From contig JAEOUE010000037.1 of the NCBI GenBank assembly GCA_016839515.1, forward strand, positions 1 through 10,340: DNA of 10,340 bases, written 5' to 3'. A program made the translations under genes and the position numbers. The first letter of the stretch is position 1. Each line of letters opens with the position of its first letter. The stretch is from Candidatus Hodarchaeum mangrovi. GTDB taxonomy: Archaea; Asgardarchaeota; Heimdallarchaeia; Hodarchaeales; Hodarchaeaceae. The notes beneath the pieces are model-generated. The model did no database searches and was not told the DNA's origin. It saw nothing but the letters and a program-made list of their open reading frames with translations. Shown here piece after piece: positions 1-7,908 of this stretch.

Positions 1-1052
1 CCTATCAACCCTAAATTAGCTACTGGATGCCAAACTTCAATATCACAAACCATATTAGCTTGGAAGGGAGATTCTAATTTATGAATAGCAGAGAAGATAT
101 GAGTCTCTTCAACTTCTAATCCAATACTATGACATGTGGGATGAATTCGTGCGAATTTCGATAAAGTTTTGGAAAAATTTCGGGCTGCTTTAAATACTGA
201 GCCTGGGTCCACACCTGGTTTAATTTCGTTAACACAAAATTCTTGAACCTTAATAACACGGTCTAAAATCTCTTCTATGCCATCAGGTACACTACCAATT
301 ACCATATGTCGGCTTATATCACTTACATAGCCTTTCCAGACAGCTCCAAAATCAAATCGTGTTACATCTCCAGGTTTAACTTGTATTCCAATTCCTGGTG
401 CTTCAGGGTCAGACGAACCAATGCCTAAAGTTAAATGATCCCATCCTTCGGCTCCTGAAGATATAATAGTACTTCTAGCTAATTTTAACAAATCATTATC
501 GGTAATTCCATTATATGATGCCTCAATACATGCTAGAATAGCCTTTTCAGAAATTTCAGTTGATTTCTTAATTCTTTGAATTTCTTCTGTAGACTTTATA
601 AGTCGCATTTCAAGAAAAACAGGGTCTGCTTCAACAAACTTACTATTAGGAAATTTTTTTTGTAAATATTCGGATTGATAACGTGGCATGGTTGATTCAA
701 GAGCAATGGTTTTTCCAGATAATTGCCAACTAGTGATTAACTGCTCTACCTCCTTTAATGCATGAATAGGAGATAACACACCGTGAGCATTACTTGATTT
801 AATCCAAGAATAATGATCCAAGCTAGCAAAAACCATCCAATAAATTAAATCTACTTCCCCTGTTTCTTGAATCAACGAAAGGAAAGGATATTGGTTCCTT
901 AAAGCCCAAAGGATGGGATTATTAGCTACATGAAGGGTTGGGAGTCCAGTTGTATAAAAAACATTTTCTCCTGAAGAACCGATAAGAAGGTCAATTTCAT
1001 GTTTTTTCAGTATTTTTGCTGTTCTTTCTCTATTATAACCAATTGGATCCAT
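1..1052 (-). CDS. M24 family (Xaa-Pro aminopeptidase/prolidase/creatinase fold) metallohydrolase, atypical active site; 3' end runs off the window
   Basis: Manual translation from ATG at 1052: MDPIGYNRERTAKILKKHEIDLLIGSSGENVFYTTG (creatinase-N-like start) ... FLEMRLIKSTEEIQRIKKS (linker motif) ... GDVTRFDFGAVWKGYVSDISR ... CHSIGLEVEE ... NMVCDIEVW. Open for 350 codons to the window edge. Metal ligands D234, D245, H308 and E339 are present. GAAGGAG RBS lies just upstream on the minus strand. Missing from the ORF track because there is no stop codon in the window. Confidence 0.92.
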   Translation of the reverse strand, partial: MDPIGYNRERTAKILKKHEIDLLIGSSGENVFYTTGLPTLHVANNPILWALRNQYPFLSLIQETGEVDLIYWMVFASLDHYSWIKSSNAHGVLSPIHALKEVEQLITSWQLSGKTIALESTMPRYQSEYLQKKFPNSKFVEADPVFLEMRLIKSTEEIQRIKKSTEISEKAILACIEASYNGITDNDLLKLARSTIISSGAEGWDHLTLGIGSSDPEAPGIGIQVKPGDVTRFDFGAVWKGYVSDISRHMVIGSVPDGIEEILDRVIKVQEFCVNEIKPGVDPGSVFKAARNFSKTLSKFARIHPTCHSIGLEVEETHIFSAIHKLESPFQANMVCDIEVWHPVANLGLI

Positions 1053-1084
1053 TATTTGTCTCCTTCATTAATTAAAAGAGGATT

Positions 1085-1438
1085 TCATTCCTCATCCTCA
1101 TAATCCATAAAAATTTCCAATCTTTGTAGATCAGCTGGGCTTCCTTTTGGTTGAAGTTCCCCTTCCATAAACGATTCCATAGGATCAATTTCTCCTGTAA
1201 GAATCCCATAAAATATATCTGAATTTACTGTTAGACTCATATCAGGATTGTCAATTTTATGTTCTTCTAATCTAGCTTTTTTGTTTTCAAATATCATTAC
1301 AACCGAGTAATTTATATCAGGAAATTCAAATAAAAAGGTCTTATTGAAGTCTTCAAACTCATCTGCGACTTCTGGATCTTTTTCTAAAAGATCAGTCCAT
1401 TTTTTTAGATGTTTAAACATTTGTTCTTTTGATGCCAT
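1085..1438 (-). CDS. Stand-alone SCP2 (sterol carrier protein 2) lipid-binding domain protein
   Basis: 117 aa with the SCP2 C-terminal pattern PDMSLTVNSDIFYGILTGEIDPMESFMEGELQPKGS (compare pDxtltxxxxdfxxlxxGxldpxxAfmxGklkvxG). GGTGA RBS upstream (TCACC at 1446-1450 on +). Very acidic, with 29 D/E of 117 residues. Confidence 0.88.
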   Translation of the reverse strand: MASKEQMFKHLKKWTDLLEKDPEVADEFEDFNKTFLFEFPDINYSVVMIFENKKARLEEHKIDNPDMSLTVNSDIFYGILTGEIDPMESFMEGELQPKGSPADLQRLEIFMDYEDEE

Positions 1439-1501
1439 TTTTATCTCACCATTTAATTATAATTTTTCAGATTAGTCTATAAACAGCGTTTATTCAAAAT
1501 T

Positions 1502-2404
1502 TTATCCTATTTCTTCAAGTTGTACTTGTCTTTTTGCAAGAAGAAAAGAGCTAATTATGATCAATAGTATTGAGGTCAAAAACAAGAGGAGTTCAATCAT
1601 ACCAGGAGGGCTAAGAAAAAAAACGAATAAATATACAAGAGCTGGGGTGACTTGGATTGGAATTTGTTGAATGGGAACTAAAATTGATGCACGTCCCACT
1701 TTAAAAGCATTTTGTAAGTATCCAAGGCCATAAATGTTTGCCAAAGTTAATAGAATAGCTGCGAATACAAAGATTATGACTTCTCCAAAAACTGCAACCA
1801 TTTCGAATACATGAACAATCGTAGCCATCAGTGGGAATACCCAAAAGTTAGCTAAAGCAAAACAAAACCCAGAGAAGACAGCTAAGTATAAACCTTTGTT
1901 TGCATTACTTTTTGTTTTCCGCTGACCAATATCACAGCCTATCATACAAATAAAGCATCCTAGAGTGAAAGCTGCTACACGACCAAGAAAGCTTGTATTT
2001 AAAATATTATAATCTTCTATTTCAATTACTAAACCACTAAATCCAAGTAGAGTTATGGCAACCATCATTAAGATGATTCCAAGGATTTCAGGTAATTCCA
2101 ATGCCTCTCCTACGATTTTTAGTGAGCCTAATGCTAAAACAATAAGGCCTGCTGCCATCAAGCCAGGTATTAAGGCAGGACCTACATACAATTGAGCCCA
2201 CATAAAAAAAATTGCTCCAATAACATTTTGCAGTATTAAACCAAACAACCACATACGATTTTTGAGCAAGGTTCGAAAGAATTTTTTTCCTTTAAGCTCT
2301 TGGGGAACCTCATTAACTACTTTCTTTTGAAGTACCGTTCCTAAATTATTAGTAATACCTGAGGTGATTGCTAAACTTACTCCAAACCAGTATAATGGTT
2401 CCAT
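1502..2404 (-). CDS. DMT-superfamily membrane transporter, NIPA (Mg_trans_NIPA)-like
   Basis: About 9 hydrophobic segments. N-terminal GVSLAITSG..NNLG.VLQKK, then LLKNRMWLFGL, then GPALIPGL...VGE.L...EILG match the layout of NIPA/DMT proteins (GLxLA...xxKK...WWxG...APAxLVxPL...LxE). Confidence 0.75.
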   Translation of the reverse strand: MEPLYWFGVSLAITSGITNNLGTVLQKKVVNEVPQELKGKKFFRTLLKNRMWLFGLILQNVIGAIFFMWAQLYVGPALIPGLMAAGLIVLALGSLKIVGEALELPEILGIILMMVAITLLGFSGLVIEIEDYNILNTSFLGRVAAFTLGCFICMIGCDIGQRKTKSNANKGLYLAVFSGFCFALANFWVFPLMATIVHVFEMVAVFGEVIIFVFAAILLTLANIYGLGYLQNAFKVGRASILVPIQQIPIQVTPALVYLFVFFLSPPGMIELLLFLTSILLIIISSFLLAKRQVQLEEIG

Positions 2405-2506
2405 TGAAAACTACCTAGCCAAATAAAAGATACTTACATGAAAACGACAAAAAACTTCAAATACTTTTCGTATGTAGCTAGGTGATAATTTCATAAAAAG
2501 CAAATA
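2405..2506. promoter_or_regulatory. Short divergent (bidirectional) promoter region
   Basis: Only 102 bp separate the head-to-head starts at 2404 (-) and 2507 (+). It contains a 7-bp inverted pair, ACCTAGC (2413-2419) and GCTAGGT (2477-2483). Exact TATA/BRE elements cannot be assigned confidently. Confidence 0.55.
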
Positions 2507-4438
2507 ATGGTGCAAATTGTGTTAAAAATAGAAGATGATTGGTTTGTTGATGAATATGGGAGAAAAATACTTCTCCGTGGTGTGAATCTAAGTGGAAGTG
2601 CAAAAATACCTGCGACTCCAAATGGAGCAACTCATCTAAAAACCAATTTTCATGATCATAGAGAAGTATCCTTTGTAGGACGCCCTCTCTTGATTAACGA
2701 AGCAGCAGAACATTTTCAACGTATTAAACATTGGGGCTTTAATACAATTCGGTTTGTTATACCGTGGGAGGCCATTGAGCATGCAAATCCGAAAAAATAT
2801 GATACTGAATATTTATCTTATTTCCAAGATTTACTTACAATTGCTGGTGAAGAATTTAAACTAAATCTGATTATTGATCCTCATCAGGATGCATGGAGTC
2901 GGTTATCTGGAGGAGATGGTGCTCCTGGATGGACATTTGAAAAAGTAGGTCTTAATTATTCCAAGTTTAATCTATCAGAAGCTGCATTGGTAATGCAATA
3001 TCGGTATAGTCCTGAAGACCCAAAAGCTTATGAACCAATGTCTTGGGCAAATAATCATCTTCGATTATCTAATGGTACAATGTGGACTCTATTTTTCGGA
3101 GGAAAAGACTTCGTCCCAAATTTTGCTATTGATGGTATAAATATCCAAGATTACCTTCAGGATCATTTTATTAATTCTTTTAAGGAATTAGCAAAATATG
3201 TGAAAGATAATCCATATGTAATTGGATTTTCAACTCTTAATGAACCAAGTCCAGGTTGGATAGGCCAATTAGTTGATGGTTCAACCATGGATGTCTCCGA
3301 AATCTTAGGTTATGCCTTCACACCATTTGATGCAATGCTAACTGGATCAGGATATACACGAACGATCCCATTTCGAGCTATTAAAAGATTAGGGATTAAA
3401 GAAATCCGAAGAGATCAATTAAACCCCGACAAAATCTCTTGTTGGATTGATGAAAAAAGAGATGTTTGGAAAAATGAGGGAATTTGGGAAATAGATACTG
3501 ACGGAAATCCTGTCATATTGAAAAATGATCATTTTAACATGAAAAATGGACAAAAAATCAACTTTTTAAAGGATTATCTAGCATTATTTATTTCTAAATA
3601 TGCGAATGCTATACGAGAGATAATCCCTGATACTCCAATCTTTTGTGGTCTTCCTTTAGATCTAATAGTCAAAGGAAAAAAAATAGATATTGAATTACCG
3701 CCAAATATATACTTGGAGGGGCACTGGTATGATGTTGCCTCAATGGGTACAAAAAGGTTCATGAAAAAAGCAAATTTTGATCTAAGGAGTGGAAGACCTG
3801 TCATAGGAGAGGGAAATGTTCAGAAAATGTTTATTGAACAGTTAGCTGCGATAAAAGAAACTGCAAGAAAAACATTCAACAAACAATTAGTGCTTCTTGG
3901 AGAAATAGGTATGTGTTTCGATCTTGAAAAGAAAAAAGCGTTTGAAATTTGGAAAACAAATCCTACAGAAGCTTGGCAAACACATATCACTGCTTTTTCC
4001 ATGTATTATCGTGCAATAGATGCAAATTTATTGCATTCAATGCATTGGAATTATACTCCAGATAATGATAATACTTTTGGAGATCAATGGAATTTAGAGG
4101 ATTTCTCAATATATAGTAATGATCAACGAGTTGATCCAGTAGATCTCAATAGCGGAGGAAGGGCTATTGAAGGATTCTGTCGTCCTTATTTAGAGAAAAT
4201 AGCAGGAATTCCTTTGAAAATGAGCTTTGATAATCAAAAAAAGATATTTGAGGTTGAATTCAATGCAGAATTATCTCTCAATGCTCCAACTATCGTATAT
4301 ATCCCTAAAATTCATTACTTAGCTGGTTACAGAGTTGATACAGATGGAGAATGGAGAAAATCGGAAAAAGATGAGCAATTAATATTGTATAAACCAAAGA
4401 AGGCAGGCTATCAAAAAATTATTATTTCCCCTAAATAA
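2507..4438 (+). CDS. Glycoside hydrolase family 5, endoglycoceramidase-related (GH5_12-like; glucosylceramidase/steryl-beta-glucosidase type), cytoplasmic
   Basis: Motifs LLRGVNLSGSAK, VSFVGRP, WGFNTIRF..PWEAIEH, IDPHQDAWSRLSGGDGAPGWT, acid/base NEP (E246), GHWYD, nucleophile GEIG (E466), WNYTPDN...GDQWNLEDFSI and GGRA...F.RPY, plus a C-terminal beta domain. These resemble fungal EGCrP1/EGCrP2 (Sgl1, Egh1). No signal peptide. Confidence 0.88.
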   Translation: MVQIVLKIEDDWFVDEYGRKILLRGVNLSGSAKIPATPNGATHLKTNFHDHREVSFVGRPLLINEAAEHFQRIKHWGFNTIRFVIPWEAIEHANPKKYDTEYLSYFQDLLTIAGEEFKLNLIIDPHQDAWSRLSGGDGAPGWTFEKVGLNYSKFNLSEAALVMQYRYSPEDPKAYEPMSWANNHLRLSNGTMWTLFFGGKDFVPNFAIDGINIQDYLQDHFINSFKELAKYVKDNPYVIGFSTLNEPSPGWIGQLVDGSTMDVSEILGYAFTPFDAMLTGSGYTRTIPFRAIKRLGIKEIRRDQLNPDKISCWIDEKRDVWKNEGIWEIDTDGNPVILKNDHFNMKNGQKINFLKDYLALFISKYANAIREIIPDTPIFCGLPLDLIVKGKKIDIELPPNIYLEGHWYDVASMGTKRFMKKANFDLRSGRPVIGEGNVQKMFIEQLAAIKETARKTFNKQLVLLGEIGMCFDLEKKKAFEIWKTNPTEAWQTHITAFSMYYRAIDANLLHSMHWNYTPDNDNTFGDQWNLEDFSIYSNDQRVDPVDLNSGGRAIEGFCRPYLEKIAGIPLKMSFDNQKKIFEVEFNAELSLNAPTIVYIPKIHYLAGYRVDTDGEWRKSEKDEQLILYKPKKAGYQKIIISPK

Positions 4439-4453
4439 TATGAGTGTTTTTCA

Positions 4454-5242
4454 ATGGCTAAGATTATTTTTTTTCAACCTCATCCAGATGATTTAGAATT
4501 AAATTGCGCTTATTTATTAAATTATTTGTCTTTAAAAAGCAAAAAAAGCCATGATATCAGAATTGCTTCTATTACAAAGGGGGAATTTGGCTTACCAGGT
4601 TTTGAATATGATAAATATAAAGGAGATTACTTGGCACAAATACGAGTAAAAGAATTGGAGAATGCTGCTGCAATTCATGGAATTCCAGCTAATAAAATTG
4701 ATTGGTTTGGGTATGTGGATGGTTTTGTTGAATTTGAAAAACGATTTATTGACCATATCTTTACATATCTACAGAAACATCGACCTGACATAATTATTGC
4801 ACCTGAAGCTCTATATACTTGGTATTACCATAAAGATCATGTTAATACTGGTAGAGCTATCTATTATGTAATATCTAGTAATTTACTTGATTACATACCC
4901 AAGCTATATTTTTATTCGTCATTAAGTCCAAATTATTATTTCCCGATTGATCAAAATAGTATTTCTTTAACAGAAAGGCTTATAAAATGTCATAAAACTC
5001 AAATCTGGTTATTGAAATCAATGAAAAGGATAAATAAACCAATTTGGATGATTTCTGGGTTTCATACTCAAGGATATAAATATGCAGAACCTTATCGGCG
5101 AGTTTATTTTGAGAAAAGCTTAAAAAGGGAAGATCGTCCTAATTGGATCATTCGAGGATTAGTAAGATTAATTGCCTCACATGCACAACTTTTTGATGCT
5201 CAATATCCAGAAGAAGTTTTAAAAGAATTAGAGAAAGCATAA
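4454..5242 (+). CDS. PIG-L/LmbE family Zn-dependent N-acetylglucosaminyl de-N-acetylase
   Basis: PHPDDLE (HxDD) near the N-terminus, ITKGEFG, IRVKELENAA, PDIII, HKDH (HxDH) and CHKTQ motifs. Starts 15 bp after the GH5 stop, so likely co-transcribed. Confidence 0.9.
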   Translation: MAKIIFFQPHPDDLELNCAYLLNYLSLKSKKSHDIRIASITKGEFGLPGFEYDKYKGDYLAQIRVKELENAAAIHGIPANKIDWFGYVDGFVEFEKRFIDHIFTYLQKHRPDIIIAPEALYTWYYHKDHVNTGRAIYYVISSNLLDYIPKLYFYSSLSPNYYFPIDQNSISLTERLIKCHKTQIWLLKSMKRINKPIWMISGFHTQGYKYAEPYRRVYFEKSLKREDRPNWIIRGLVRLIASHAQLFDAQYPEEVLKELEKA

Positions 5243-5520: not shown

Positions 5521-6255
5521 ATGAATAAAAATCTGTTATATCTCATTGGCGGATTCTCTTTAATTTTGATATTTTTTTTCTCATATTTGCTACTTTCCAA
5601 TTTAAATCTTTTTAATCAAACACCTGAAGAAAATGAACCTCCTGTACTTGAAGACTTAACAATTGGTGCCCGGATAGCAAGATATATAGACACTCGTCGT
5701 GGACAGGTATCCTTTACTTGGTGTTATAACAATTCGATAATTAATTCAAATCTTACTGATTTAATTGGGGATTATTGTGATGGAGTGCTAACCTATGGTG
5801 ATTTATCAAATGAAACCCAGAGTGATAGAAATATATCAGTAGTTGGGATTTTTGGTCAGAAAACAGGATATATTGACAATATTGAACTTTCATCAGTGGT
5901 TGGAGGTTTTATTTCAGTTTTACAAATTACAGATAAGAATTCTTCTTCAGTTACTGATTGGAATGAAATTTCTCCTTGGCCTCCTACTTTTTGGTGGGAT
6001 ATAGCTTTTGATGATAATACTTCCATTAGTATTCTCTATTCCAAAGAACAAAAAATGATCACTGCCATCAATGGAACATGGGAGATGTCGAGCTTTGGTT
6101 TAAATGAGACTACTTTTATTGATTTTCCTAATTTTGAATATAATTGGGATGATTATGTCTATCAAGCTTTTTTAGAACTAGATACTGCAATGCAAGCAAC
6201 GATTAACGATGTTATCGATTTATATTTGACTATACTTAAAGATGCCCTTATCTAG
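5521..6255 (+). CDS. Hypothetical membrane-anchored extracellular protein, likely N-glycosylated
   Basis: N-terminal signal anchor (LLYLIGGFSLILIFFFSYLLL), an acidic N/S/T-rich ectodomain, nine N-x-S/T sequons and two Cys. No family recognised. Confidence 0.8.
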   Translation: MNKNLLYLIGGFSLILIFFFSYLLLSNLNLFNQTPEENEPPVLEDLTIGARIARYIDTRRGQVSFTWCYNNSIINSNLTDLIGDYCDGVLTYGDLSNETQSDRNISVVGIFGQKTGYIDNIELSSVVGGFISVLQITDKNSSSVTDWNEISPWPPTFWWDIAFDDNTSISILYSKEQKMITAINGTWEMSSFGLNETTFIDFPNFEYNWDDYVYQAFLELDTAMQATINDVIDLYLTILKDALI

Positions 6256-6367
6256 CAGGAAATAGCTAGAAAAGCACCCGATTAATAAGTTGAAAAAGAG
6301 TATATAAGGTAAAACAACGAAAATCTTGGAAAAAAAGATATGAATAGTTCACTTCAAAGTGGGATAT

Positions 6368-6934
6368 ATGGTATTTAATATACTAAATCGAAGACCATCT
6401 CAAAAAAAGACGATATTACTACTAATAGGTGGAATAATAGGCACAATACTCTCCTTATTAATTATGAATCTCTTTTTTGAGCTTTCAAATTATCCTGTTT
6501 CCTTTTTTGAAAGTCAATTATCCTTTTCAGGTCAAATTATCAAATCTCATTTTGCTACGATGTCTTTTCAAGAGTTGAACTACTATGCAATGGGGCAACT
6601 GTTTGATTATGGTTTTATTATCTCAAATGCGGCAGTAAAATTTAGTTTAGCTATTTTACTAGCTAGGATATTTAGTACTGATTCAACCCTTAGGAATTCA
6701 GGATTCATAGTAGCATTTTTAGGTATTTTAGGTAGTCTGTTTGATGCAATAGAAAATATCTTCATTTTTTTTATGATTGGTGATCCAATTGGTTTTAATG
6801 ATTGGTTAGCAGTCATTCATTCTGTTTTTGCCTTAGCAAAGTATATTTTAACCTTTATTGTATATATCTGGCTTTTGATTGCCCTTATTCTTGTAATTAA
6901 AATTCAACTAAGCTCCCAAGCAGAGAAAATATAG
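6368..6934 (+). CDS. Hypothetical integral membrane protein (~4 TM) with D..F and FDAIEN motifs
   Basis: Four hydrophobic helices with intramembrane acidic residues (LFDYGF, LFDAIEN). ATG 6368 is preferred over the ORF-track GTG at 6359, but the start is uncertain. Confidence 0.78.
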   Translation: MVFNILNRRPSQKKTILLLIGGIIGTILSLLIMNLFFELSNYPVSFFESQLSFSGQIIKSHFATMSFQELNYYAMGQLFDYGFIISNAAVKFSLAILLARIFSTDSTLRNSGFIVAFLGILGSLFDAIENIFIFFMIGDPIGFNDWLAVIHSVFALAKYILTFIVYIWLLIALILVIKIQLSSQAEKI

Positions 6935-6996
6935 ACCAATTAATCTGAAGGTAAATTTAAAAATAAAGATTATCAAGAGTTTATTTGAGACCACGA

Positions 6997-7161
6997 ATGT
7001 TTAATAAAAAAAATTCGCTTAATCGTAAATTAAAAAAAGCAAACATAAATAAAGAAGTAATAGAGCATATTAAAGATACTAAACGCAAAATGAAAGAAAA
7101 AATTCCTCAAGTATCCAAGAAAGAAGAACGGAAAGAGTCCCAGCATAAGGAAAAAACTTGA
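6997..7161 (+). CDS. Possible small Lys-rich protein (54 aa)
   Basis: ATG 6997 to TGA 7161: MFNKKNSLNRKLKKANINKEVIEHIKDTKRKMKEKIPQVSKKEERKESQHKEKT. Strong purine bias typical of coding DNA, and it fills an otherwise long gap. Below the ORF-track size cut-off, with no clear RBS. Confidence 0.4.
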   Translation: MFNKKNSLNRKLKKANINKEVIEHIKDTKRKMKEKIPQVSKKEERKESQHKEKT

Positions 7162-7387
7162 AAACCTAAGATAACTCTATACTGTACTCAGTTACCTCTG
7201 ATTAAAAGTTTATTTTTACAAGAAATTAACCTGTTCTATTTGTATATGTTTCCGACCTCTATCTAAAACAAATGGAGTCATTATTACCCTCAGAAGTCTG
7301 CAATGTAAGATCCTTCGATTTTTGGATGACAATCATGCAGGTAATTTATAAGTGCGAATCTCTTAGTGAAATTTTACATTCAACAAT

Positions 7388-7837
7388 GTGACTTCTCAAT
7401 GGTTAAATTCCTTAAAAATTAAACAATTAAGCTTAGCAGTAGCTCCTGCAAATAATCCTGAAATCCTTTTAGCTGATGAACCCAAGGAAGAATTAGATAG
7501 CGTAACAACTTTAAAAATCATTGAGTATTTAAAAGAGCTAAATTCTGATTTAGGAATAACAATTATTGTTCTAACACATGATCATCGATTTGCTCGAATA
7601 ATTAATAAAGTATTAAAGATTCAAGACGGAAGGTTTTCAGGATTTTTTACATCAAAGAAGGAATTATCATTTTCTGATTCAGAAAAACTTACGTATATTG
7701 ACAAGTTCGGTACTTTAATAATACCAGAATATTTTCGAAAAGCTGCTCATATTAACAATTACGTTCGATTTGAGATTGTTGATGGAAAGCTTGTTGTTCT
7801 ACCTGCTAATTCTGACAATCGGGAAGGAATTAATTAG
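7388..7837 (+). pseudogene. Degenerate LolD/MacB-type ABC ATPase C-terminal half fused to an AbrB-like beta domain
   Basis: Retains Walker B/D-loop (NNPEILLADEPKEELDS) and H-loop (TIIVLTHD), then YIDKFGTLIIPEYFRKAAHI..VRFEIVDGKLVVLP (AbrB/MazE-like). No Walker A, Q-loop or LSGGQ. An in-frame TGA lies at 7367 just upstream. Consensus ALAN has become APAN and EPTG has become EPKE. No permease nearby. Confidence 0.7.
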
Positions 7838-7908
7838 AGGAAAAAAGCTAAAAAGAGAGTTTTTATTCCCTCCATCAAAACATGATTTTGAACATAGGAT
7901 GGAATAAT

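Follow-up and report, generated by a model that had tools for sequence, protein, structure and literature searches.

A conserved Asgard gene cluster with a predicted Sgl1-type beta-glucosidase and its probable role in the catabolism of glycosides

The window analyzed here is the whole 10,340-bp contig C145 (JAEOUE010000037.1) of Candidatus Hodarchaeum mangrovi, an Asgard archaeon whose 4.0-Mb genome (G000; 348 contigs, 91% complete) holds dozens of Ras-like genes. Within positions 3-5242 lie five open reading frames (ORFs) for a metallohydrolase of the M24 type, a small SCP2-fold protein, a membrane protein, a GH5 glycosidase and a PIG-L-type deacetylase (Table 1), separated successively by 32, 63, 102 and 15 bp. 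The first-pass annotation of this DNA had described five packed genes forming two units around the 102-bp spacer, a layout that we can endorse, as the ORFs are intact and the gaps the same. The G+C content along the window is 29-39%, and TATA-like A+T-rich stretches can be spotted by eye in the spacer about 20-30 nt ahead of each ATG. Pfam matches above the gathering scores are Peptidase_M24 with Creatinase_N, SCP2, Cellulase/GH5 with Glyco_hydro_5_C, and PIG-L. No signal peptide or transmembrane (TM) segment was found in any of the four soluble proteins (M24, SCP2, GH5 and PIG-L), all of which are predicted to be cytoplasmic. Here we report that these genes are linked across many Asgard genomes and propose that they serve the cytoplasmic breakdown of a glycoconjugate.

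Table 1. Features of the 10,340-bp window, with the lines of evidence used to assign them.
Feature	Position	Strand	Basis
M24B metallohydrolase; ORF runs off contig start	3-1052	-	Pfam
SCP2-fold protein, 117 aa, stand-alone	1085-1438	-	Pfam PF02036
Membrane protein, 300 aa, polytopic, predicted member of the DMT (drug/metabolite transporter) superfamily, NIPA-like; presumed permease	1502-2404	-	Family Pfam matches and AlphaFold2 model
Divergent spacer, 102 bp, A+T-rich	2405-2506	.	Sequence reading
Predicted GH5_12 Sgl1/SglA-type capped exo-beta-glucosidase with C-terminal beta-sandwich	2507-4438	+	PDB phmmer, Foldseek
Predicted PIG-L/LmbE-family zinc de-N-acetylase	4454-5242	+	Pfam PF02585
ORF244, 244 aa, N-terminal TM anchor	5521-6255	+	
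ORF191, 191 aa, multi-TM	6359-6934	+	
ABC-transporter ATPase remnant	7388-7837	+	LolD-type models
Deoxyribodipyrimidine photolyase, C-terminal FAD-binding part, cut by contig end	9881-10339	-	Pfam PF03441

To assess linkage, an alignment search with the GH5 gene was made, which found a relative encoded in 579 of 599 candidate stretches; the best 80 loci (species-representative genomes) were kept, wider stretches from relatives were added, and the window's ten proteins were searched by phmmer against all ORFs of the fetched loci. In many Asgard loci the membrane, PIG-L, SCP2 and M24 genes follow one another in this order on one strand, forming a recurrent block 1-8 kb from GH5; the common position of SCP2 is thus between PIG-L and M24. 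The gaps within the block are operon-like, ranging from -14 to 80 bp between the membrane gene and PIG-L (15 pairs) and from 17 to 179 bp between SCP2 and M24 (14 pairs); the shortest distances are those that separate the membrane gene from PIG-L, at -14 to 25 bp in 11 of the 15 pairs. The M24 orthologues that adjoin SCP2 in other Asgard loci are 54-74% identical to that of the window. A window-like divergent junction, with the membrane gene pointing one way and PIG-L and GH5 the other, is found in the same-genus genome G007 and in loci L015, L032 and L063; several loci labelled Thorarchaeota show this variant.

The maximum-likelihood tree of the GH5 proteins comprised 81 rows (excluding ORFs shorter than 560 aa, the short loci L001-L009 and three duplicates), and a row was scored as linked when its locus contained at least two block genes. 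All 23 linked rows grouped in a single 44-row clade with SH-aLRT support of 100; the other 37 rows (25 bacterial, mostly Chloroflexota, and 12 other archaeal) were all unlinked. With the window excluded, the clade is represented by 41 loci; of these, 20 possess two or more block genes and 14 the full set of four. In the 28 clade loci that span 12 kb or more, Gfo/Idh/MocA-family dehydrogenase genes are present in 20, M24 and PIG-L genes in 17 each, SCP2 genes in 16 (18 of 41 overall) and membrane genes in 15. Across 400 genomes of the phylum, GH5 occurs in 109, the membrane family in 118 and both in at least 66; GH5 and a membrane gene share a contig within 15 kb in at least 42 genomes and within 5 kb in at least 34, the co-occurrence counts being lower bounds, as they come from 150 of 179 membrane-family matches. 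The linkage spans three GTDB-coded families, at least 10 genera and one non-Asgard archaeal metagenome-assembled genome (MAG; L060).

Distribution within the genus tells the same story on a smaller scale. GH5 is found in five of its 22 genomes, G000 included, and the membrane gene in two. G007 contains orthologues of all five genes with 66-81% identity. In G009, which is a single 4.9-Mb contig and 96% complete, the PIG-L, SCP2 and membrane orthologues are absent, and the GH5 copy (L091, G009:C1, approximately 1515239-1516804) lacks residues 1-122 with no N-terminal piece upstream in any frame; it seems to be a decaying relic of a module whose other genes were lost. None of the five genes is found in G011, while G016 and G001 contain only distant paralogues on separate contigs. 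As the genes have been gained, kept and lost jointly, we regard their linkage as established, and since the arrangement recurs across genomes it is far beyond chance. The functional linkage proposed in the first-pass annotation, which was to fall if orthologues were scattered with no recurring linkage, thus stands: the block recurs, and a membrane gene lies within 15 kb of GH5 in 42 genomes at the least.

In L060 and L056, from MAGs labelled Methanobacteriota and Thermoplasmatota, respectively, the GH5 protein falls inside the Asgard block clade, and near GH5 L060 also carries genes for SCP2, M24, a Gfo/Idh/MocA dehydrogenase, a PfkB kinase, a 2-keto-3-deoxy-6-phosphogluconate (KDPG)-type aldolase and a major facilitator superfamily (MFS) sugar transporter, which suggests either that part of the cluster was transferred laterally or that the MAGs were mis-binned. 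In the closest relative, a TnpB/Cas12f-like ORF of the IS605 family adjoins GH5 (L090, G007:C13, 9404-10708, + strand) and may be related to the differing order of GH5 and PIG-L in the two genomes.

Clustering of every ORF in the loci, together with scans against Pfam and NCBIfam, showed the five genes to be the compact centre of a more extensive conserved locus. The commonest companion of GH5 is the Gfo/Idh/MocA dehydrogenase; other conserved neighbours encode short-chain dehydrogenases/reductases (SDRs), a PfkB kinase, either a BKACE protein or an aldolase of the dihydrodipicolinate synthase (DHDPS) family, a GH20 hexosaminidase (adjoining GH5 in 11 of the 41 clade loci), an amino-acid racemase, an Amidohydro_2 protein, a pirin and a Pab87-like protein of the beta-lactamase fold. 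The best names for the PfkB protein are KdgK or kinase of 2-keto-3-deoxygluconate (KDG) and 2-keto-3-deoxygalactonate (KDGal), and the DHDPS-family aldolase matches an archaeal KD(P)G-aldolase model with 182 bits. For instance, G007 shows in succession the genes for the beta-lactamase-fold protein, the Gfo/Idh/MocA dehydrogenase, the DHDPS-family aldolase, PfkB, BKACE and an SDR, followed by leftward genes for an SDR, M24, SCP2 and the membrane protein and by rightward PIG-L and GH5. In G000 itself, the 2-kb contig C140 carries an orthologue of the Gfo/Idh/MocA gene (65% identity) followed by a DHDPS-family ORF, and no match to the PfkB, GH20 or Amidohydro_2 proteins of the cluster was found in this 91% complete genome at E<=1e-10. 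A join of C140 to the left end of the window was considered but gained no support: the two share no sequence overlap, and the C-terminus of M24 is not on C140. No glycosyltransferase was found among the conserved neighbours of the cluster.

An acyl-CoA ligase gene downstream in the window had been suggested as a further member that would activate released fatty acid. Of 88 other distinct loci, just two (L013 and L057) have a homologue of it at 10 kb or less from GH5, so the ligase is excluded from the module; in the window, two unconserved ORFs and the remnant of an ABC ATPase gene stand between it and the five genes. Those two ORFs, ORF244 and ORF191, were likewise rejected as members, as homologues occur in none of the fetched GH5 loci; ORF244 has no Pfam match even at E<=10 and ORF191 no credible one. 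In the remnant, LolD-type models match only in their C-terminal third (profile positions 151-219, E 1.2e-15), and no Walker A motif is present in any + frame of window positions 6901-7900, so this is probably a truncated pseudogene, judging from its sequence. The window ends in a photolyase gene fragment (E 1.8e-69).

In phmmer searches of the PDB the best matches of the glycosidase are SglA of Aspergillus (8exd, E 2.4e-91) and Sgl1 of Cryptococcus (7lpo, E 4.2e-85), while endoglycoceramidases match at only about E 1e-10. Its AlphaFold2 model (pLDDT 83, below 50 at residues 31-48 and 519-533) aligns by Foldseek with Sgl1 and SglA over the whole length (TMq 0.87-0.89, identity 29-32%) and with endoglycoceramidase II at TMq 0.55. 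According to the accessible portion of the Sgl1 study, E270 and E520 are the catalytic pair, K47, H142, N269, W570 and E587 bind glucose, and W584 forms a cap that excludes a second sugar (PMC8497620). When mapped by hand on the phmmer alignment, Sgl1 K47, H142, N269, E270, E520, W570, W584 and E587 correspond to K33, H126, N245, E246, E466, W514, W528 and E531 of the window protein, with the acid/base Glu inside an NEP motif (N245-E246-P247) and E466 as the nucleophile, and all eight residues are invariant across 23 Asgard homologues. The residues L290, L431, L458 and A470 that surround ergosterol in Sgl1 align, also by hand, to L267, L386, M413 and A422. Based on its sequence and structural model, we predict that this protein is very probably an exo-beta-glucosidase acting on a single glucose attached to a hydrophobic aglycone; the PDB matches, fold and invariant residues agree with the earlier assignment to GH5_12 of the Sgl1/EGCrP2 type.

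The same annotation had remarked that the module, were its host an Asgard archaeon, would bear on the origin of eukaryotic glycolipid handling. A special link between Asgard archaea and eukaryotes is not supported for this GH5 by the comparisons made here: bacterial homologues, mostly of Chloroflexota, are closer (38-44% identity) than the fungal structures (29-32%), and the rows of the tree are bacterial and archaeal. The nearest homologues come from records named Promethearchaeota, Lokiarchaeota, Thorarchaeota, Hermodarchaeota and Heimdallarchaeota, which accords with an Asgard host, as do the Ras-like genes of its genome. The neighbourhoods of the bacterial-type GH5 genes (52 ORFs in 14 loci, 12 bacterial and 2 euryarchaeal) are heterogeneous, with no recurring partner. 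Elsewhere in the genus, paralogous GH5 genes with 46-48% identity (L092 on G016:C3 and L093/L047 on G001:C5) adjoin genes for a UbiA-family prenyltransferase and two Rce1-like CAAX proteases, possibly an independent link of this GH5 type to isoprenoid-lipid metabolism. The activities recorded for GH5_12 in the accessible portion of a paper on GH5 include glucosylceramidase and, in yeast, flavonoid beta-glucosidase, beside a largely bacterial, uncharacterised clade (PMC3526467).

The deacetylase matches PF02585 with E 6.6e-19 (69.1 bits versus a cut-off of 28.2 bits), and its zinc motifs, HPDD (H10, P11, D12 and D13) and HxDH (H126, D128 and H129), are invariant in 16 orthologues. Its sole relatives in the PDB are the diacetylchitobiose deacetylases of Thermococcales, which are matched over positions 2-216, with E 4e-10 for the single sequence; the family profile matches the same enzymes with E from 3.6e-14 to 1.2e-12 and nothing else in the PDB. 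The NCBIfam models BshB1, BshB2 and Mca score far under their cut-offs.

The SCP2 protein (PF02036, E 5.8e-10, 39.9 bits versus a cut-off of 21.3 bits) is presumed from its family to carry a hydrophobic ligand. The profile of its family matches mammalian SCP2 (1qnd, 2c0l and 1c44), AF_1534 of Archaeoglobus (3cnu) and the SCP2 domains of MFE-2, with E from 9e-08 to 7e-07 for 1qnd, 2c0l, 1c44, 3cnu and 3bn8. A search for longer homologues revealed no fused forms at E<=1e-5, which is weak evidence, and the predicted complex of M24 and SCP2 scored 0.28 against a mark of 0.32 with controls absent, which counts neither way.

The M24 protein (PF00557, E 3.9e-24, 86 bits; PF01321, Creatinase_N, E 1.8e-09) lacks about 26 C-terminal residues at the contig end when compared with homologues of 374-376 aa. 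In the PDB it comes closest to the prolidases of Pyrococcus (1wy2 and 1pv9). The metal ligands D234, D245, H308 and E339 (G007 numbering) are invariant in 16 family members, and the fifth ligand, E353, which lies beyond the cut in the window copy, is at least 90% conserved among them. In the motif HSIGLE[VC]EE, Glu takes the place of the second His of the prolidase motif H..G.G...HE, and E315 and E316 are invariant. As this His is replaced and the best NCBIfam match, archaeal PepQ, reaches 84 bits versus a cut-off of 630 bits, we file the protein under the M24B fold (prolidase/aminopeptidase-P type) and not as a demonstrated prolidase. The label "atypical" given to it earlier can be retained only for the Glu in place of the second His, as the metal site is conserved.

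The membrane protein of the window has no Pfam match even at E<=10, and its designation as NIPA-like comes from its family: 8 of 27 members match Mg_trans_NIPA (PF05653; best E 2.3e-11) and 10 of 27 match EamA (best E 4.4e-05), so the earlier name "NIPA" holds for the family and not for this protein taken alone. Its AlphaFold2 model (pLDDT 88.3) gave no PDB hit in Foldseek at E<=0.001, the top rows being ABC exporters at a meaningless TM of about 0.2. The top rows of VIA-align, all DMT or small multidrug resistance (SMR) transporters with 102-181 residues aligned, are Gdx-Clo (Z 9.7), LicB (9.2), Vrg4 (9.1), YddG (9.1), PfCRT (8.5) and a CMP-sialate transporter (8.5); for helical bundles, Z values below about 13 are weak. 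Genomes contain several copies of the family, frequently beside Gfo/Idh/MocA genes, and such contexts of the paralogues fit a solute permease. In a single case that touches the question of lipid substrates (L109, G281:C57, 2873-4324, - strand), an ORF matching the N-terminal domain of neutral/alkaline ceramidases (PF04734, E 1.4e-08, 34.3 bits versus a cut-off of 32.1 bits) is divergent from a PIG-L-like gene (25% identity), which is followed by a paralogue of the membrane protein.

Neighbours that are sugar and sugar-acid enzymes, a PIG-L protein that resembles the chitobiose deacetylases and the contexts of the permease family together suggest a catabolic locus for glycosides or amino sugars, and hence the glycolipid salvage module envisaged in the first-pass annotation survives in part: the linked module and the Sgl1-type GH5 were recognized correctly, while the kind of neighbours and the nearest relatives of PIG-L speak against the lipid side of that proposal. 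We propose, with confidence a little better than even, that the five genes represent a compact and rearranged version of a catabolic cluster conserved in Asgard archaea and that this cluster would act in the cytoplasm on a glucoside, or on a conjugate of an amino sugar, whose aglycone is hydrophobic. Its core would comprise six genes, for the NIPA-like DMT permease, the PIG-L-type de-N-acetylase, the SCP2 carrier, the M24B metallohydrolase, the Gfo/Idh/MocA dehydrogenase (here on C140) and the Sgl1-like GH5_12 exo-beta-glucosidase. The enzyme families, the intact catalytic residues, the cytoplasmic location, the conserved linkage and the joint gain and loss are features of the sequences themselves, on which a substrate, an order of steps and roles for SCP2, M24 and the membrane protein can be only provisionally built. 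In the scheme that we favour, the permease would take up a glycoconjugate, or the conjugate would be extracted from the membrane; it would consist of a single beta-glucose on a hydrophobic aglycone together with an N-acetylated amino sugar or another amide, and its processing would take place in the cytoplasm. The capped GH5 may strip the single glucose, PIG-L may take off the N-acetyl group and the M24B enzyme may cut a further amide or peptide-type bond, while SCP2 would hold the hydrophobic substrate or product in solution. The freed sugar would be oxidized by the Gfo/Idh/MocA dehydrogenase and enter a route of the KDG-kinase/aldolase type, which relatives encode next door. Within this hydrophobic-aglycone reading, a true membrane glycolipid deserves perhaps a third to a half of the weight.

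Several observations count against our proposal, chiefly against its lipid side. Among all the components, only SCP2 and the Sgl1-type pocket of GH5 point to a hydrophobic or lipid aglycone, and a hydrophobic one could be something other than a membrane lipid, given that GH5_12 includes the flavonoid beta-glucosidase of yeast. No lipase, esterase or beta-oxidation gene was found among the conserved neighbours, and the NCBIfam matches of these neighbours are all under the curated cut-offs except for the amino-acid racemase subfamily. The solved relatives of PIG-L act on soluble chitobiose or N-acetylglucosamine (GlcNAc), and paralogues of the membrane protein stand in other sugar-type contexts, beside genes for Gfo/Idh/MocA proteins, class-V aminotransferases, MFS_2 proteins and a protein like glucosamine (GlcN)-6-P isomerase. 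Furthermore, 15 of the 41 clade loci are without any block gene (8 of these 15 are under 12 kb), and in one GH5 sub-clade the neighbours are fucose-isomerase-like and ketohexokinase genes instead.

Much of this evidence would suit the catabolism of soluble amino sugars or glycosides with no lipid involved, such as GlcNAc/GlcN oligosaccharides or soluble aryl or alkyl beta-glucosides, which we consider possible but on the unlikely side. PIG-L would then work like the chitobiose deacetylase of Thermococcales, the only solved structures that its profile matches; GH20, so often adjacent, and GH5 would release monosaccharides, which the Gfo/Idh/MocA enzyme, a lactonase, KDG kinase and aldolase would burn; the DMT protein would be a sugar importer, in line with the surroundings of its paralogues; and SCP2 and M24 would be accessory or serve peptide or amino-acid use. 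The conserved KdgK-like kinase, DHDPS-type aldolase, Amidohydro_2 protein, SDRs and IolG-like dehydrogenases fit such a pathway, as does the flavonoid beta-glucosidase among GH5_12 enzymes (PMC3526467, accessible portion). It offers no explanation for SCP2, however, whose gene is part of the operon in 18 of the 41 clade loci, including 16 of the 28 that reach 12 kb, and GH5 retains the single-sugar cap W528, hydrophobic residues at all four ergosterol positions and a whole-length fold equal to that of Sgl1, cap included. Moreover, GH20 and PfkB proteins like those of the cluster are missing from G000 at the threshold given above. At the other end of the range is a dedicated cytoplasmic pathway for dismantling glycolipids, in which an Sgl1-type glucosidase, a lipid-presenting SCP2 in the role that saposins have in lysosomes, lipid-directed deacylases (PIG-L and M24B) and a DMT importer or flippase would permit these inhabitants of sediments the reuse of glycosyl-archaeol or glycosyl glycerol dialkyl glycerol tetraether (GDGT), bacterial or algal glucolipids or glucosylceramide-like lipids, and which would share ancestry with the eukaryotic GH5_12 hydrolases; in this full form we think it unlikely.

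The cluster might also remodel glycolipids of the cell's own membrane by trimming beta-glucosyl head groups of archaeol or GDGT or by processing a GlcNAc lipid, e.g., GlcNAc-archaetidylinositol, with PIG-L at the cytoplasmic face, the DMT protein as flippase and SCP2 as lipid chaperone. The cytoplasmic prediction for all soluble enzymes, the tight spacing of the membrane gene and PIG-L, the Pfam name of the deacetylase family, taken from the de-N-acetylase of GlcNAc-phosphatidylinositol, and the paralogous GH5 genes next to UbiA in the genus could all be read in this way, and the small DMT/SMR proteins ArnE/F are known to flip an amino-sugar lipid. A housekeeping function is nevertheless a poor match for so patchy a distribution (GH5 in 5 of 22 genomes of the genus and 109 of 400 in the phylum, the membrane gene in 2 of 22), the cluster is embedded among sugar-catabolic genes and it has no conserved glycosyltransferase, so that we judge remodelling distinctly improbable. 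That the genes are chance neighbours forming no functional unit is scarcely credible: their order is shuffled between lineages, GH5 standing on either side of PIG-L and the block lying 1-8 kb from it, and the clade loci devoid of block genes would be expected on that account, but the linkage recurs in three GTDB-coded families, at least 10 genera and L060, and the genes are lost together within the genus.

Although the proposed catabolic module for a conjugate with a hydrophobic aglycone has counterparts among characterized systems, it coincides with none of them. The window GH5 shares with Sgl1/EGCrP2 of Cryptococcus (7LPO) and SglA of Aspergillus (8EXD) the whole-length fold, the catalytic Glu pair, the glucose-binding residues, the one-sugar Trp cap and the C-terminal beta-sandwich, but identity is just 29-32% and its 643 aa compare with 779-797 aa in the fungal chains. 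Its gene shares an operon-like cluster with those for a deacetylase, SCP2 and M24, a setting of which the accessible portions of PMC8497620 and PMC3526467 make no mention. Archaea are not known to make sterols, and because of this the natural aglycone of the Asgard enzyme probably differs from the sterol of the fungal enzymes.

The chitin pathway of Thermococcales combines the diacetylchitobiose deacetylase Dac, a PIG-L/LmbE-family protein, with the exo-beta-glucosaminidase GlmA of GH35. Like Dac (3WL4, 3WE7 and 8BGN), the deacetylase described here is a predicted cytoplasmic archaeal PIG-L-family protein encoded beside a glycosidase in a sugar-catabolic cluster; their kinship is remote (E 4e-10), however, the glycosidase is Sgl1-type GH5 and not GH35 GlmA, and SCP2, M24B, the DMT permease and the Gfo/Idh/MocA dehydrogenase are additional. 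In lysosomes, glycosphingolipids are degraded by glucocerebrosidase with saposin or the GM2 activator, hexosaminidase and ceramidase. By analogy, the cluster may offer a glycolipid glucosidase, a small lipid-binding helper, GH20 (in many relatives) and an amide hydrolase, but SCP2 is not homologous to saposin, M24B and PIG-L are not homologous to ceramidases and the predicted site is the cytoplasm. The Gfo/Idh/MocA dehydrogenase, KdgK-like PfkB and DHDPS-family aldolase of relatives, partly present on C140, recall archaeal modules of the semi-phosphorylative Entner-Doudoroff pathway, from which the cluster differs in that the scores are under curated cut-offs, no dehydratase was identified and BKACE replaces the aldolase in many loci.

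The cluster thus looks like a catabolic glycoside-utilisation locus of unusual and seemingly undescribed composition: we found no description of it in the full texts and Asgard papers searched, supplementary tables aside, in agreement with the earlier remark that no such prokaryotic operon was known. Terms for the cluster have zero occurrences in bioRxiv 10.64898/2026.10.28.762692 and PMC10307638, within the same scope, and the accessible portion of a further Asgard paper mentions one SCP-2 homologue in a cultured Lokiarchaeon, after which SCP-2 is set aside (PMC12139934). The DNA of the window is contained in 20 sequencing runs from 7 studies of sediment, soil and marine-sediment metagenomes; none of the runs listed is an RNA run.

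Even in its most ordinary interpretation, the cluster is an undescribed and widely conserved carbohydrate-utilisation locus of Lokiarchaeia-type Asgard archaea that presents six targets for expression and assay. It also places a large NIPA-like DMT family and a distinct M24B subfamily in a functional setting for the first time. Should the substrate prove to be a glycolipid, the locus would give a first genetic handle on the breakdown and recycling of membrane glycolipids in Asgard archaea and would bear on the recycling of lipids in sediments. It would then also bear on whether lipid proteins of the eukaryotic type, SCP2 and Sgl1-like hydrolases, cooperated before eukaryotes.

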